Positions 35,548-41,443 of a DNA stretch of 42,624 nt are shown in pieces; within the stretch, counting starts at the first letter, position 1, and each line of letters begins with the position of its first letter. The stretch comes from Clostridia bacterium (GTDB lineage: Bacteria > Bacillota > Clostridia > Christensenellales > UBA1242): the NCBI GenBank assembly GCA_017505165.1, contig JAFVPU010000217.1, positions 1 to 42,624 of the forward strand, in the 5' to 3' direction. Made by a program: the position numbers and the translations under genes. Under the pieces are notes generated by a model. That model had not been told where the DNA came from. It did no database searches and saw only the letters and a list, made by a program, of their open reading frames with translations.

Positions 35548-35751
35548 ATGGCAAATATTGCATTCGACATTTCTAGTGCGCTGTATGTTGAAGGTGCACA
35601 GAAAAATTTTCAACCAGATGAAAATGGTGTGTGGAAAGACTTTCCTGTTATGGTAATAGGAAAAGTAAGTCGCAACAACAAGGAGTATGAAGTAAACTCC
35701 ATGGTAGACGCTATCACCAATCCTGGTTCTATTTTTTATAAAAAACTTTAA
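35548..35751 (+). CDS. T4 gp21-like prohead protease, N-terminal fragment (67 aa) ending at an in-frame TAA
   Basis: TGGAG RBS. ...KVSRNNKEYEVNSMVDAI... resembles gp21 ...VVNRNKRLYPKRILEKAV... It is in the same frame as 35752-36333, separated from it only by TAA 35749-35751. Confidence 0.55.
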   Translation: MANIAFDISSALYVEGAQKNFQPDENGVWKDFPVMVIGKVSRNNKEYEVNSMVDAITNPGSIFYKKL

Positions 35752-36333
35752 ATGGGTCAGCTTCACGGAGAATACGGACATCCTCTCGTTCTTTGTGAAA
35801 AAGACCTTCCTCGCATTGCTGTTGTTGATCCAACAAAAGTATCACATGTTATTCACAGTGTGAGATGTGGTGAACCAACAGAAAAAGGTCATCGCATCGT
35901 CTATGCTGACATTGAACCATTTGGTCCATATGGCGAGTATCTTGAAAAATCTCTTCGTAATCCAAGAATCAACACAGCATTCTCTTTGAGAAGTTTGGTT
36001 TCTAAAATCGGAACTTCTGGAAACGTGATCAAACAGAGAGTTACAGCGCTTATCACGATTGATGCTGTAGACGCACCTGGTTACGCAGAAGCATCAAAAG
36101 TCCGTGTTCCTTCTATGGAAGGAATCAGTATCGATATTGAGCATCCTGAAGATCACCTAGAAGAGCTTGCTATGGCATGCGGATGTGAGTCCGTAGATGA
36201 TCAACAATTGCTTGATACTTTACAAGTCAATAAGGTTGAAATCAAACACAGTATCAATGGTATCGTCGATGTCAATGGTCGACTCATATCTACTTCAAAC
36301 GGAAAGAAATCACTCTTTCACGAGTTATTCTAA
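35752..36333 (+). CDS. T4 gp21-like prohead protease, catalytic portion (193 aa)
   Basis: GEYGHP ~ gp21 GELNHP; AFSLRSLVS ~ GVSSRGLGS; ITIDAVDAPGYAEA ~ VGVDAVWGPSAPDA (gp21 sequence recalled from memory). ATG 35752 has no Shine-Dalgarno and directly abuts the TAA of the upstream fragment. Confidence 0.6.
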   Translation: MGQLHGEYGHPLVLCEKDLPRIAVVDPTKVSHVIHSVRCGEPTEKGHRIVYADIEPFGPYGEYLEKSLRNPRINTAFSLRSLVSKIGTSGNVIKQRVTALITIDAVDAPGYAEASKVRVPSMEGISIDIEHPEDHLEELAMACGCESVDDQQLLDTLQVNKVEIKHSINGIVDVNGRLISTSNGKKSLFHELF

Positions 36334-36350: not shown

Positions 36351-37034
36351 ATGTACGATTACGACGAATCAGAAGCATCGTTTTTCGACGAGCTTCAGGT
36401 AGCACCTCCAGTTGCACCAATTGAAAGTCCTGCTAACCCTGTAAATCCTAATGCACCAAAAGTGCCTGGGAATATTCCTATTGGATCTCCTATGGAGTCT
36501 GGGTTTGTAACAGTTATTCCTAATGGAGAACGTAAAAAGTATGTTTGCAATATCGACTGGTTTGTTGGAAAACCAGATCCGTACATGAACATCACACATA
36601 TTCTCTATACTGCTGAACCTGGTGACGAAGTTGTGTTCAATTTGTATTCTTATGGAGGTTCTGTTGAAACAGGATGCATGATCATCAATGCTATCAAGAA
36701 TACTAAAGCGACCGTTACAACAGTGGCGTTTGGATTGTGTGCATCTATCGCTGCTATGATCTGGTCATGTGGACACATACGTGAAGTTATGCCAACCGCT
36801 ACTATCATGTACCATATGCCATCTGGTATGGTTTTTGGTAAAACAGCAGATAATGAAGAAGAATCTCGTCATATCCAAGGATACTTCAGTGAATTCATGC
36901 GTGAAGTTACTAAAGGTATCCTAACTGAAGATGAACTTGATAAGATCATCAATAAACGTATGGATATGTTTATCCCTGCAGCAACTATTCAAGCAAGACT
37001 TGCTGTAACTAAAGAGGAGAATACAAATGAGTAA
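36351..37034 (+). CDS. ClpP-family (clan SK, S14-like) serine peptidase (227 aa)
   Basis: AAAGGAG RBS. VVFNLYSYGGSVETGCMIINAIKNTKATVTTVAFGLCASIAAMIWSCG...IMYHMPSG...KRMDMFIPA aligns with E. coli ClpP [43 protein letters not shown]...VMIHQPLG...RDRFLSA. Ser, His and Asp all fall at the expected positions. It has a Pro-rich N-terminal extension. Confidence 0.7.
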   Translation: MYDYDESEASFFDELQVAPPVAPIESPANPVNPNAPKVPGNIPIGSPMESGFVTVIPNGERKKYVCNIDWFVGKPDPYMNITHILYTAEPGDEVVFNLYSYGGSVETGCMIINAIKNTKATVTTVAFGLCASIAAMIWSCGHIREVMPTATIMYHMPSGMVFGKTADNEEESRHIQGYFSEFMREVTKGILTEDELDKIINKRMDMFIPAATIQARLAVTKEENTNE

Positions 37035-37785
37035 ATTTAATCTCTTTGGTTCTGATGATCGCCCTATCGAAACTTTTGGTGAAGTAACATTCAAAGAAAG
37101 TCATGAAGAAATTATTCCATCTAACGAATCTGTTAGTTTGGAAACTATCAATGCATACGATATGAATGAGCGTAAACAGATGAGTGCTGCTATATTGAGT
37201 AACAAAAGCAACTTTTTGGATTGTGTTTGTGATGGTGGTCCTAGAAAGAAACCACTTATCTTCACAAAAACTATCTGCAAAGAAACAAAAAGCTGTTGCT
37301 GGGAGTTCTTCCTTAATTATATCTGTTTCACAGTAACCAATGATTTCATCACTAAACTCGAACAAGTTAAAGAAAATGATTGTGTTCTTATTCACGGACC
37401 TGCTTGTTGTTACACTGATGATGCTGAAGTTATTTGTGCTGCAATCAGTCGTTGTAAAGCAAAAGAAAAACTTATCAGTTCTCCTTATATCTTAGATATC
37501 GGAGCTGCTTCTATTCTGCTTACAGCAACCAAAATCATTCATTCTGTATGTAACCTCATTCGTCTCAGTCCTCCAATGGTGTCAGGAGGAGGTGCTATGC
37601 AAGATGCACGTATGACTTTTGAAAACAATGTTTACAGAAACACTATCGTTATTAAGAACTTGCTTAAAGCTGGTTTTATTACACAAGATGAATACAATCA
37701 TCTTGTCGAAGAACAAGGTGGTGTGTGTCTTCATGGTAAACGTTTGAAAGAGATCATTGATATCTTCAATCAAAAACATGCATAA
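37027..37785 (+). CDS. ClpP-like paralog, probably catalytically inactive (252 aa)
   Basis: AGAGGAGA RBS. 8-nt overlap with 36351-37034. CVLIHGPACCYTDDAEVICAAI...ILDIGAASILLTA...LIRLSPPMVSGGG...ITQDEYNHLVEEQGG.CLHGKRL follows the ClpP fold pattern. The Ser is retained in GAAS, but the His of the (M/I)xHxP motif is replaced (RLSPP). Confidence 0.5.
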   Translation: MSKFNLFGSDDRPIETFGEVTFKESHEEIIPSNESVSLETINAYDMNERKQMSAAILSNKSNFLDCVCDGGPRKKPLIFTKTICKETKSCCWEFFLNYICFTVTNDFITKLEQVKENDCVLIHGPACCYTDDAEVICAAISRCKAKEKLISSPYILDIGAASILLTATKIIHSVCNLIRLSPPMVSGGGAMQDARMTFENNVYRNTIVIKNLLKAGFITQDEYNHLVEEQGGVCLHGKRLKEIIDIFNQKHA

Positions 37786-37790
37786 GTTTA

Positions 37791-37823
37791 AGAGATAGAT
37801 GGACGTTTCGTCCATCTATCTCT
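37791..37823. terminator. 15-bp perfect hairpin H14
   Basis: agagatagatggacg-ttt-cgtccatctatctct, 6 nt after the stop at 37785. No U-tract. Confidence 0.65.
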
Positions 37824-38000
37824 GAATCTCATATTCGTCATTTTAATCCTAAGTTTGTCTATAGTTTAGCCTCAAATTATCAACATTTTTTAACGAGTCT
37901 GCATCTCATATCAGGGTTAAAAATATGTAATAAATTAGATATCAAAAATGAGTAATGTTATACTCGGCTATGAGTAAAATCTAAATAGAAGGAGCTTAAA

Positions 38001-39242
38001 ATGAATGTTATTAAGCGTAATGGTGATGTTGTAGAATTTGATTCTTCTAAAATTACCAAAGCCATTGAAAAAGCAAACAATAAAGTCGAAAATCGGTTCA
38101 GACTTCATATGCTCCCGAGAGATATCGCAAGAGAACTTTCAAACGATATTGGCAAACGTGAAAGCATCAGTGTTGAAGAGATTCAGGATCTTGTAGAGAA
38201 GAAACTCTATGAAGTTGGAGCTTCATTCGAACTTATCAAAGAATACGTAACTTATCGGTATCGCCGTTCGCTTGAACGTGATAAGTATAACGCTTTCATT
38301 TCAGGGATCAAAGAAAAACTCCAAGCAAAGAATGTAAAAAATCAGAATGCTAATGTTGATGAACATTCGTTTAGTGGTCGTTATGGAGAAGCAACCAACT
38401 ACATGACAAAAGAGATTGCTCTTACTACCAGACTTTCTCCTATGGCTAGAAACAATCACCTTGGAAATATGATTTATATTCACGATCTCGATCATTACGA
38501 ATTGGGAGATCACAACTGTCTCACAATTCCATTCGACGATCTTCTTAAAAACGGTTTTGAAATAAGACAGACCGATATCCGTACAGCTAGGAGCGTTGAT
38601 ACCGCATTTCAGTTATTGGCTGTTATTTTCCAGCTACAGAGTCTTAATCAGTTTGGTGGAGTCAGCTCTGGACATCTTGACCACACAATGGTACCATATG
38701 TACGTATTTCATTTTACAAACATTTCAAAGATGGTCTTGAATTCGTTGAAGAAGTAGACAAAACTGATGTCATTTGGACTAAGATTTGCGATTCTCTTTC
38801 TGTTGATGATGAAATCTACAAGTCTCACAAGAAAGCATACAATTATGCAACACGTATGACATTGAAAGAAATACGTCAAGCTGTTGAAGGAATGTTCCAT
38901 AATCTGAATTCGCTCCAAAGTAGAGCAGGTGGACAACTTCCATTCACTTCAATCAACTATGGTACTTGTACTAATACTGAAGGTAGATGGATAATCAAAA
39001 ACCTTCTTGAAGTTAATATTGAAGGTATCGGTAAGAACAAAAGAACTCCCATATTTCCATGTTCTATCTTCCAGTGTATGAAAGGTGTTAATCGACATCC
39101 GGGTGATCCAAATTACGATATGTTCAGGTTGGCACTTAAATCAACAGCATCTAGACTTTACCCCAATTATGTAAATTGTGATTGGTCTGGTAATGCTGGT
39201 TATGATATCAATGATCCAAAAACATACATGTCCACAATGGGT
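38001..39242 (+). CDS. nrdD: anaerobic ribonucleoside-triphosphate reductase NrdD, exon 1 of 3 (414 codons)
   Basis: GAAGGAG RBS. ATP-cone N-terminus MNVIKRNGDVVEFDSSKITKAIEKA. FPCSIFQCMKGVNRHPGDPNYDMFRLALKSTASRLYPN is typical of NrdD. The exon ends ...STMG (GGT, last base T 39242). The remaining 11 codons of the track ORF are intron sequence. Confidence 0.85.
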
Positions 39243-39497
39243 AAGTGTAAATGCAGCCCATTTAAAACTTTCTGAACCTCGCCCGAGGGTGTAGTAGTGT
39301 TAATCTACTGCTAACGGTTAGGACTCTATGAGTTGAGACCGTGCTAAATTCTACATATGTAGATAAATGTGTATCGACTATCCCCGATGAATGTAAGGGA
39401 GTAGGGTGTGAGATAGGCACACACTCGAAGCGGAAAGCTATATTAGTATTAATATAGAAGATATAGTCAGTGTCATCAGTGATGATGAATTAAAACG
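39243..39497 (+). mobile_element. group I intron (IA2, T4 td-like core), ORF-less, 255 nt
   Basis: The 5' exon ends in U. Exon AAUGGGU (39236-39242) pairs with intron GCCCAUU (39256-39262), giving the U.G wobble at the splice site. The intron ends in G 39497. Core strings CCGUGCUAAAUU, AUAAAUG, CGACUAUCCC, GGGAGUAGGGU, ACUCGAA and AGAUAUAGUC match the T4 td intron as I recall it. P6 is a simple hairpin, ucuacauauguaga. Confidence 0.8.
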
Positions 39498-39995
39498 TGC
39501 AGAACAACCAACGGCTTTGATATCAACGGTCTCGGACAGCAAAAAGATGGTCGTGGTAATATCTGTCCTGTAACTATCATTCTTCCTGAGCTTGCTATGC
39601 AGGTTAAAGCAAGAGAATACAAAAAACTATCGAGTAAAGATAACATTTCTTTGTTCCTTGAACTTCTTGATAAAAAGATTCATGAAGCCAAAGACATGCT
39701 TCTTGAAAGATTTGAGTGGATATGTTCTCAATCTCCTGAATGTGCCAAATTTATGTACGATAACAACGTGATGGCAGGTTATGTTCCTGAAGAAGGAATT
39801 AGAAGTGCTCTCAAACATGGTACAATTGTCATCGGTCAGCTTGGTCTTGCTGAGTGTTTACAAATATTGGTTGGTTGTGATCATACTGAACCACTTGGTA
39901 TGAAATTAGCAAAACTTATTGAACAACTTTTTAAAGATCGTTGTGCTGAATTCAAACAACAATATAAATTAAACTTTGGTGTTTATTTTACCCCT
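39498..39995 (+). CDS. nrdD: NrdD exon 2 of 3 (166 codons)
   Basis: Starts TGC AGA (CRTTNGFDINGLGQQKDGRGNICPVTIILPELA...), restoring MGCR across the junction. It is in frame with track ORF 39597-40031. It ends ...FGVYFTP (CCT, last base T 39995). Confidence 0.85.
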
Positions 39996-40975
39996 GAATT
40001 CTGTGGGGGCTGCTACAGAGATGTAGCATGAGAAAGTCGGCTAACCGAGAAAACTCGGGTGTGCTCATTATGAGTGCTAACAGGGAACCCAAGAACCCTG
40101 TGCTAAATAGAAACACAACAAAGGATTTGTTAAATGAAAATCGAAAAGATACCTGACGATGCTGTACTTATTCCTGGAACCAAAGATGAATATATCGATA
40201 GACAAGGAAATGTCTATGGACATGATCATCGATCAGGACACAAGGGTGAACCGTTTATACGGGAACAAAACACCGTACATGGTTATAAGTACACAAAAAT
40301 ACGTGGAGTATCTACGAGAGTTCATAGAGTTGTTGCAGAAGTCTTTATTCCAAACCCAGATAACTTACCGATTGTTATGCACAAAAACAATAACAAAGCA
40401 GACAACCGGGTAGAGAATTTAAAATGGGGTACCATTAAAGAAAATACGCAACAAGCAGTTGACGATGGATTAATGGTGAACGCTAAAGGTGCTGAGGATT
40501 CACAAAGCATCCCTTGCGACATGTATGATACAGTTACAAACAAACGCATTGCTTCATTTGGTTCCACATCAGAAGCAATGCGTGCAACAGGTATCAATAA
40601 AGTAACAATATGTGCCCAAATCCGCTCATCTGCACCAATACGTAAACCTGTCTACTTCACGCGCAAAGACGAAGGAAGTAGACCTCATGACATTGTAGTG
40701 GCGACCGATTTAAAAACTGGTGAAGAAATTGGAAGATATCCAAACGTAGGACGTGCCTCGGCAGCAACTGGCATTCCTCAAAACACCATTGCTCAACAAT
40801 GTCAAACTGGAAAACGTAAATGGTCTAAAACAAACGTGGTATTTTCACGTGTGTTTCTTAAAGGTGAAGAGATCATCGAAAGCGATAAGCGAGTAGAGTA
40901 GTGTATGAGTGAAACTCTCATATGCGAAAGACCGACACCCACCAGTGCGGTGGGATAAAATATGATCCATTAAAG
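39996..40975 (+). mobile_element. group I intron carrying an HNH homing endonuclease gene, 980 nt
   Basis: The 5' exon ends in U. Exon CCCCU pairs with intron GGGGG (40005-40009), including a U.G pair. GCUAACAGGGAACC...CCCUGUGCUAAAU resembles td CUAAACGGGGAACC...CCCGUGCUAAAU. The ORF follows in the position of the P6 loop. The intron ends in G 40975. Removing it restores TP|AENLC. Confidence 0.75.
40134..40901 (+). CDS. intron-encoded HNH homing endonuclease, I-HmuI-like (255 aa)
   Basis: AAAGGA RBS. VHRVVAEVFIPNPDNLPIVMHKNNNKADNRVENLKWGTIKEN is the HNH_3 / I-HmuI-type motif. It is followed by two helix-turn-helix-like modules (GSTSEAMRATGINKVTICAQI and PNVGRASAATGIPQNTIAQQC), NUMOD/IENR-like. 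Confidence 0.8.
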   Translation: MKIEKIPDDAVLIPGTKDEYIDRQGNVYGHDHRSGHKGEPFIREQNTVHGYKYTKIRGVSTRVHRVVAEVFIPNPDNLPIVMHKNNNKADNRVENLKWGTIKENTQQAVDDGLMVNAKGAEDSQSIPCDMYDTVTNKRIASFGSTSEAMRATGINKVTICAQIRSSAPIRKPVYFTRKDEGSRPHDIVVATDLKTGEEIGRYPNVGRASAATGIPQNTIAQQCQTGKRKWSKTNVVFSRVFLKGEEIIESDKRVE

Positions 40976-41443
40976 GCAGAAAACCTCTGTTATACAGCTA
41001 TGCTTAAGTTCAAAGAAAAATGGGGTGAAATACCAAACGTTTCAGATAGAGACTTCTTTACTAATTCAATACATGTTCCTGTGTGGAAAAAGATGACTCC
41101 TTTTGAAAAGATCGATATTGAATCTCAGCTCACAGGATACAGCAATGCTGGATGTATAACTTACATTGAACTAGATTCTAGTTGTAAAAATAACATCGAT
41201 TCTATCGAATCTATTGTCAATTACGCAATGGATAAAGATATTCCATATTTCGCTATCAATGTACCAAATGACCAGTGCTCAGAATGTGGATACATTGATG
41301 AAATAGGAACCAACTGTCCTGTATGTGGAAACGATGATATCAAACGTCTTCGCAGAGTCACAGGATACTTAACAGGAAACTACACTACTGCTTTCAACTA
41401 TGGAAAGCAGAAAGAAGTTGAAGCTCGCGTTAAACATTGCTAA
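40976..41443 (+). CDS. nrdD: NrdD exon 3 of 3 (155 codons plus stop)
   Basis: Starts GCA GAA AAC (AENLCYTAMLKF...). Contains the CSEC...CPVC zinc ribbon and the glycyl-radical motif RRVTGYLTG. The upstream 18 codons of track ORF 40922-41443 are intron sequence. Confidence 0.85.
   Translation, partial: AENLCYTAMLKFKEKWGEIPNVSDRDFFTNSIHVPVWKKMTPFEKIDIESQLTGYSNAGCITYIELDSSCKNNIDSIESIVNYAMDKDIPYFAINVPNDQCSECGYIDEIGTNCPVCGNDDIKRLRRVTGYLTGNYTTAFNYGKQKEVEARVKHC

Follow-up and report, generated by a model that had tools for sequence, protein, structure and literature searches.

The window analysed here, a stretch of 42,624 nucleotides (nt), is a single contig (42.6 kb, C218) in a metagenome bin of 1.5 Mb. 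We examined a pair of overlapping genes in this window, ORF1 and ORF2, that directly follow the gene for a prohead protease of the S80 family. An initial annotation, made from the sequence of the window, had read the pair as two ClpP-like proteins, one apparently active and one inactive. The boundaries of both frames were confirmed (Table 1), with an overlap of 8 nt between them. From comparisons of sequences and predicted structures, ORF2 appears to be a catalytically dead ClpP-fold paralogue of ORF1 that is maintained by selection beside the head protease gene.

Table 1. Features of the S80–ORF1–ORF2 region, in window positions (aa, amino acids)
Feature	Position	Strand	Description
S80 prohead protease gene	35548..36333	+	phiKZ gp175-type; Pfam Peptidase_S80, 85 bits; phrog_3014
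ORF1	36351..37034	+	227 aa; predicted ClpP-family serine peptidase, triad Ser132-His155-Asp205
Translational-coupling junction	37012..37034	+	Shine-Dalgarno AAAGAGGAG inside ORF1; ORF2 start and ORF1 stop overlap in ATGAGTAA
ORF2	37027..37785	+	252 aa; predicted ClpP-fold pseudo-protease; D157, S181 and G232 at the Ser, His and Asp positions
S37-L38-E39 codons of ORF2	37135..37143	+	putative S80 cleavage site; would release a 39-aa N-terminal propeptide
Hairpin	37786..37826	+	strong; directly 3′ of the ORF2 stop; −25 kcal/mol, z-score −7.15

Virion proteins of the phiKZ type are encoded in the window, with a protein identity to cultured relatives of only ∼30%, and the metagenomes with near-identical DNA, which come from several studies, were mainly of gut or faecal origin. 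On this basis, the window represents part of the genome of an uncultured, phiKZ-like giant phage of the gut. Its genes include those for a tail sheath (phrog_3242), structural proteins (phrog_3004, 3185, 3430 and 2926), a homologue of phiKZ gp176 that is ∼30% identical to PhiPA3 gp206, and a phage polymerase subunit (phrog_2943). CLP_protease domains and an intron-split nrdD are among the frequent features of the gut ‘Jug’ jumbo phages described in a 2026 paper (PMC12880540), and the phage of the window may be a member of this group or a near relative.

The ORF1 and ORF2 proteins

ORF1 matched the Pfam profile CLP_protease (PF00574) with 63.8 bits (cut-off 20.2; E = 2.5e-17). The best PHROG family was phrog_1827, ‘ATP-dependent protease’ (E = 7e-35), with phrog_5410 also among the best families; the ClpP-type head-maturation PHROGs 94, 133 and 1684 were weaker, secondary matches (E = 1e-18 to 1e-13). 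When ORF1 was compared by hhalign with the canonical ClpP encoded elsewhere in the bin (97.4% probability, E = 9.5e-12), GLCAS132 was aligned to GMAAS of the cellular protein and MYH155MP to MIHQP; Asp205 lies in the sequence RMDMF. An alignment of 14 sequences, made up of divergent metagenomic relatives, three ClpP-like proteins of cultured phages and the cellular ClpP, had G102, G103, V122, S132, H155 and D205 as its sole invariant columns. The Ser, His and Asp of ORF1 thus lie in the ClpP register, as the initial annotation had it, and on these alignments ORF1 is a ClpP-family peptidase with a complete triad. The same annotation had proposed searches against both the S14 (ClpP) and the S49 families; ORF1 was positive for the first and below the Pfam cut-off for the second (Peptidase_S49_N, 16.6 bits vs 27).

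The ORF1 gene is preceded by an AAAGGAG ribosome-binding site. Its product starts with a low-complexity, Pro/Asn-rich extension of ∼70 aa (residues 1–70, encoded at 36351–36560), e.g. PVNPNAPKVPGNIPIGSP, which is found likewise in the relatives and is not present in cellular ClpP.

For ORF2 there was no direct family match: Pfam and PHROG searches produced only noise (SHOCT, E = 0.06), profile searching gave no match to S49, and SppA ranked only 39th in the fold search. A sequence search of the PDB with a 10-sequence ORF2 profile returned chance matches only (e.g. cytokinin dehydrogenase, E = 0.046). Nothing was found among 50,697 phage records by tblastn of ORF2 or megablast of the region. 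With the consensus of the ORF2 family, the only matches in cultured phages were to ordinary ClpP-like genes that are already annotated, with no orthologue found, and a related-locus search of viral contigs with the 10-sequence ORF2 alignment confirmed no relatives. From metagenomes, a word-indexed search recovered nine relatives with 35–91% identity, and an exhaustive profile search brought the family to 43 representative clusters at 50% identity, in which length and motifs are conserved. A further profile search for homologues added few members.

The family as a whole resembles ClpP. By hhalign, the ORF2 family (46 sequences) matched the ORF1 family over 188 columns with a probability of 97.8% (E = 8.6e-13) and 13% identity, and a hidden Markov model (HMM) of the ORF2 family gave 58 bits on the ORF1 of the window and matched every phage ClpP-like protein tested. 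The AlphaFold model of ORF2 built from the 46-sequence alignment had a mean predicted local distance difference test (pLDDT) score of 84.4; each 10-residue block from residue 81 onwards averaged at least 91, and the N-terminal 77 residues were modelled at lower confidence. A model from the shallow 10-sequence alignment (pLDDT 49) was not used. Foldseek matched ORF2 in the PDB to ClpP in all of its top hits, namely those of S. aureus, M. tuberculosis (ClpP1P2) and Listeria (ClpP1/2), with target template modelling (TM) scores of 0.57–0.65. The top matches in the viral database BFVD were phage ClpP-like proteins, with E values down to 4e-10, and the best structural match by target TM-score was the ClpP-like protein of Pectobacterium phage My1 (0.74). 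Profile comparison and structure prediction together indicate that ORF2 is a ClpP-fold paralogue of ORF1, in line with the fold similarity first proposed.

Profile alignments of ORF2 to the ORF1 family and to cellular ClpP agreed in placing D157 at the nucleophile position and S181 at the His position, the latter within RLSPP, where ClpP has MIHQP. In the alignment to the ORF1 family, G232 occupied the Asp position. The initial annotation had recognized RLSPP at the site of the His motif, and had also credited ORF2 with a retained catalytic serine in GAASILL. That serine, S162, is five residues downstream of the nucleophile position, in a column that is variable across the 46 sequences (Tyr in 19, Leu in 9, Ser in 6 and Phe in 6), and the second of these assignments has to be given up. 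Within the same 46 sequences, the Ser position is held by Asn (16), Asp (12), Ser (10) or Gly (4) and the His position by Asp (14), Ser (8), Thr (8) or His (2); Asp is found at the Asp position in no member, and the full triad in 0/46. Judged by these alignments, ORF2 is catalytically dead. Two distant members, P0041 and P0050, retain Ser and His, and P0050 is still above the Pfam threshold for ClpP, a pattern consistent with an active ancestor that lost its catalytic residues step by step. We also considered H123, S173 and D118 of ORF2 as a different catalytic set, and put it aside because H123 and S173 are not invariant.

The loss of three triad residues, together with the lack of a Pfam or PHROG match, is what might be seen if ORF2 were simply a decaying, functionless duplicate. 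However, the ratio of nonsynonymous to synonymous substitution (dN/dS) for ORF2 was 0.11–0.16, with a value of 0.155 at an unsaturated dS of 0.28 in the comparison with a 92%-identical relative. There were no differences across ORF1 and ORF2 among contigs from four gut samples, where the gene is intact. With the 43 clusters and the confident AlphaFold model added, the selection and conservation data effectively refute decay, and they point to ORF2 being a functional gene under purifying selection.

Gene order and expression signals around the pair

A ClpP-like gene was found upstream of the ORF2-like gene in 12/12 loci. The S80 gene came directly before the ClpP-like gene in all 10 of the metagenomic loci with enough upstream sequence, and the S80–ClpP–pseudo-ClpP order was kept in L014 and L016, which are only 21–23% identical to ORF2. 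The window and its closer relatives (L004, L006 and probably L024) have nrdD downstream of the pair; genes on the opposite strand are found there in L015, L016, L018 and L019, with a tubulin-like gene nearby in L016. The comparison of loci argues that the placement beside the head protease is conserved and not accidental. In the window, two gaps divide nrdD (38001–41443) into three parts, and the second of the gaps holds an HNH endonuclease gene.

The two genes of the pair are also closely joined to each other. A Shine-Dalgarno sequence of the GGAG type precedes the ORF2 start in 9/10 related loci, and the frames overlap by 4–11 nt in the loci with gene calls, the exception being L018, where there is a 3-nt gap. 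In L015 (2042–3424), the active ClpP-like and pseudo-ClpP domains form a natural in-frame fusion of 460 aa (P0022), which was seen in two contigs. Two further arrangements were noted. One distant lineage has a 151-aa gene without a family match between the ClpP-like and ORF2-like genes (L021:726–1181). The ORF2-family member P0031 (L018:3951–5498, 515 aa) has an insertion of ∼290 aa without a Pfam match between an N-terminal S-T-E-G-L motif and the ClpP-fold core.

These arrangements bear on the idea that ORF2 acts alone, either as a decoy that poisons or redirects host ClpXP/ClpAP, or as a non-proteolytic ring or scaffold of the prohead core descended from ClpP. The extra gene of L021 and the insertion of P0031 are in keeping with it, as are the far divergence of ORF2 from ORF1 and the strong constraint on a protein that has lost all its catalytic residues. 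On the other hand, the constant presence of a ClpP-like gene upstream, the coupling and the natural fusion argue for a joint function, and we consider a solitary role for ORF2 very unlikely.

A perfect hairpin of 12–17 bp occurs at the same place after the ORF2-like gene in 9/10 related loci (including L004, L005, L006, L014, L016, L018, L019 and L024). The hairpins of different lineages are unrelated in sequence, and their T-tails are weak or missing. Judged from the hairpin itself, it is likely to be a position-conserved element, terminator-like or for RNA processing, that closes the operon. Because such a strong hairpin follows the ORF2 stop, and recurs at this place in the relatives, ORF2 is probably the last gene of its transcription unit, set apart from nrdD. 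A gap of 215 nt follows, in which nrdD is preceded by a promoter-like site and a ribosome-binding site of its own.

The S80 protease and the S-x-E motif of ORF2

In the window, the S80 gene is interrupted by a TAA codon at 35749–35751. The initial annotation, in which this gene was called gp21-like, had noted the stop and asked, partly on that ground, which of the neighbouring proteases does the processing. At the position of the stop, divergent relatives have AAA (Lys). Contigs from three other gut samples (runs X2, X3 and X4) have A at 35749 and no other difference across the stretch compared, and the unitigs of the best-matching run are broken at precisely 35749, which suggests that T/A at this site is a within-sample polymorphism. 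On the evidence of these sequences, the stop is a strain-level single-nucleotide polymorphism, and at the level of the population the S80 protease is normal. We rejected both recoding and readthrough of the stop, as the other samples carry AAA. The stop is thus real in the window and absent elsewhere, with S80 intact in the three other samples and in all divergent relatives, and therefore the question that it had raised falls away.

The C-terminal region of the S80 protein contains a conserved [S/G]-x-E-G-[ILV] site (PSMEGIS in the window). More widely, the S80 proteins of related loci have [S/G/A]-x-E-[G/S] in the C-terminal region where the phiKZ and SPN3US proteases self-cleave.

A motif of similar form lies in ORF2, within an N-terminal extension of ∼75 aa. 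E39 is the sole invariant column of the 46-sequence family. The residue at P3 before it is Ser in 41 members, Ala in 3 and Gly in 1, giving [S/A/G]-x-E in 45/46, and the two positions after E39 hold a small and a hydrophobic residue, in that order. Across the family the motif is 18–80 residues from the N-terminus, and the N-terminal region that flanks it is otherwise poorly conserved. The linker of the P0022 fusion holds S-A-E-G-L (GFSAEGLQ). S80 proteases are known to cleave after Glu, at A-x-E in SPN3US and at S-x-E in phiKZ; their substrate sites include SLE-13 of phiKZ gp93 and ASE-20 of SPN3US gp45, and N-terminal propeptides of 20–24 residues are known (PMC5694885, PMC10052503). From the match in motif, the ORF2 propeptide would be removed by the S80 protease. 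If so, ORF2, and probably ORF1 too, would enter the prohead.

A candidate S80-type site in ORF1 (PME, PMD, PTE or STE before G-[FY]) is not conserved and has no S/A/G at P3; therefore, we do not propose ORF1 as a direct S80 substrate.

Taken together, we think it probable that the two proteins form a mixed ClpP/pseudo-ClpP complex that is coupled to S80 head maturation and likely matured in the prohead. ORF1 and ORF2 would then be a duplicated ClpP pair at the 3′ end of an operon encoding the S80 head protease. Through coupled translation both proteins would be made together and would most likely co-assemble into mixed ClpP-type rings, with ORF1 supplying the active sites and ORF2 serving as a structural or regulatory subunit. 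ORF2 would be made with a propeptide of ∼39 aa ending in S-L-E; since this ending fits the cleavage preference of the S80 protease encoded next to it, the complex would probably be recruited to the prohead, or matured in it, and processed there. The analysis shows the homology and fold of the pair, the state of the triads, selection, the conservation of gene order and motif, coupling signals and a natural fusion; we infer that the two proteins form hetero-oligomers, that the S80 protease cleaves ORF2 at E39 and that the complex is located in the capsid.

It is possible, if doubtful, that the complex is itself a capsid cargo. Here, the ORF2 propeptide would target the complex into the prohead and the S80 protease would trim it at S-L-E39. 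The mature, self-compartmentalised peptidase would then either help to remove the large mass of cleaved inner-body and scaffold fragments from the giant head, or leave the virion together with the DNA and degrade host proteins as infection begins. Capsid-targeting sequences are carried by the internal proteins of T4. If true, either outcome would make it the first ClpP-type machine to be packaged in a virion, and a new class of virion cargo.

Several observations weigh against a link of the complex to the prohead. ORF1 is without a conserved S-x-E, so that the active subunit must enter the prohead riding on ORF2. The closest cultured relatives of ORF1 (T5-like, rV5-like and KVP40-like) are single genes among genes for replication and nucleotide metabolism, which fits a cytoplasmic role, and the pair in the window borders nrdD. 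The phiKZ-like phage PhiPA3 is without the pair after its protease; thus, the pair is not needed for S80-type head maturation. Finally, short [S/A/G]-x-E sequences are common by chance, and the conservation of the motif argues for a function without identifying the protease; its reader could instead be ORF1 or another partner.

Some of these observations would be expected if the pair were a cytoplasmic, non-virion ClpP/pseudo-ClpP protease that is made late in infection and that, with or without a host Clp unfoldase, might remodel the host or phage proteome. The proximity of S80 would then reflect shared late transcription, and S-x-E would be an autoprocessing or ORF1-dependent site. The propeptide of cellular ClpP is indeed removed by the ClpP active site. 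Such a role would also suit the ‘ATP-dependent protease’ families, rather than the head-maturation ones, as the best matches of ORF1, the single-copy homologues in cultured phages, and the presence of ClpP-like genes near nrdD/nrdG in rV5-like phages as well as here. In contrast, the linkage to S80 holds in 10/10 loci while the downstream neighbours change, and the hairpin separates ORF2 from nrdD. The motif of ORF2 has the exact P3/P1 pattern of S80 proteases and is found in the fusion linker too, and to our knowledge the known ClpP propeptide sites are not Glu-specific. We therefore regard a purely cytoplasmic role as unlikely on balance, and keep to the mixed complex coupled to S80 head maturation as the probable arrangement.

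Other ClpP-type genes were present in the bin. Contig C59 (L001) has a canonical clpP–clpX pair. If the bin is the host, its Clp unfoldase would be within reach of the phage ClpP-like proteins; the binning may rest on composition alone. A further ClpP-like gene with active-looking motifs (ACSCG and LYHSM) lies on the minus strand of contig C119 (L003; 17946–18233, in a 258-aa frame), adjoining a tail fibre-like gene rich in repeats. This ClpP-like gene may belong to another phage or to another part of the phage of the window.

Comparison with known systems

Inactive paralogues that accompany ClpP have been described in cyanobacteria, plastids and some bacteria. As with ClpP/ClpR of cyanobacteria and plastids, and ClpP1/ClpP2 of actinobacteria and Listeria, the phage genes are ClpP-fold paralogues that are encoded together, and the Foldseek matches of ORF2 include chains of the M. 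tuberculosis ClpP1P2, Listeria ClpP1/2 and Chlamydomonas Clp core structures. ClpR is without catalytic residues and works only in a mixed ring; for the phage proteins we infer co-assembly from the genes. The resemblance to ClpP/ClpR that was seen initially therefore holds as far as an active ClpP followed by a dead ClpP-fold paralogue, but not in its detail, since ORF2 has lost all three catalytic residues and not the His only.

There are further differences from ClpP/ClpR. ORF2 carries the N-terminal extension with S-x-E, the phage pair is linked to a capsid protease and not to Clp ATPases, and ORF2 is nearer to phage ClpP-like proteins (E = 4e-10 in BFVD vs 4e-5 in the PDB). Because its closest matches are these phage proteins, the comparisons of sequence and model suggest that the phage pair arose by an independent duplication, separate from ClpR.

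The stand-alone ClpP-like proteins of phages (PHROG 1827: T5-like, rV5-like, FelixO1-like, KVP40-like and Xoo-sp13) have the same fold and triad as ORF1. They are present in single copy, without a dead paralogue and without linkage to a prohead protease. The S80 gene of the window is of the same family as phiKZ gp175 and SPN3US gp245 (MEROPS S80), and the motif of ORF2 resembles the propeptide sites of their substrates; no ClpP-fold protein is named among the S80 substrates described in two SPN3US proteomic papers. A common clan fold also relates ORF1 to lambda gpC (S49) and to the S14-type head maturation proteases. Those enzymes carry out maturation as the only protease, often with a scaffold domain fused to them, whereas in the window a separate S80 protease fills this role. 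In the literature searched, we found no description of a ClpP/ClpR-type pair in phages or viruses.

The locus thus presents a predicted dead ClpP-fold subunit that selection has preserved, coupled to an active paralogue and tied to the gene of a head-maturation protease in a clade of widespread giant gut phages. It offers a concrete connection, open to testing, of two protease systems in the assembly of giant-phage heads, and a natural system for asking what inactive subunits give to ClpP-type machines. For a family of 43 clusters (at 50% identity) that Pfam and PHROG do not recognize, it provides a predicted fold and a likely role.

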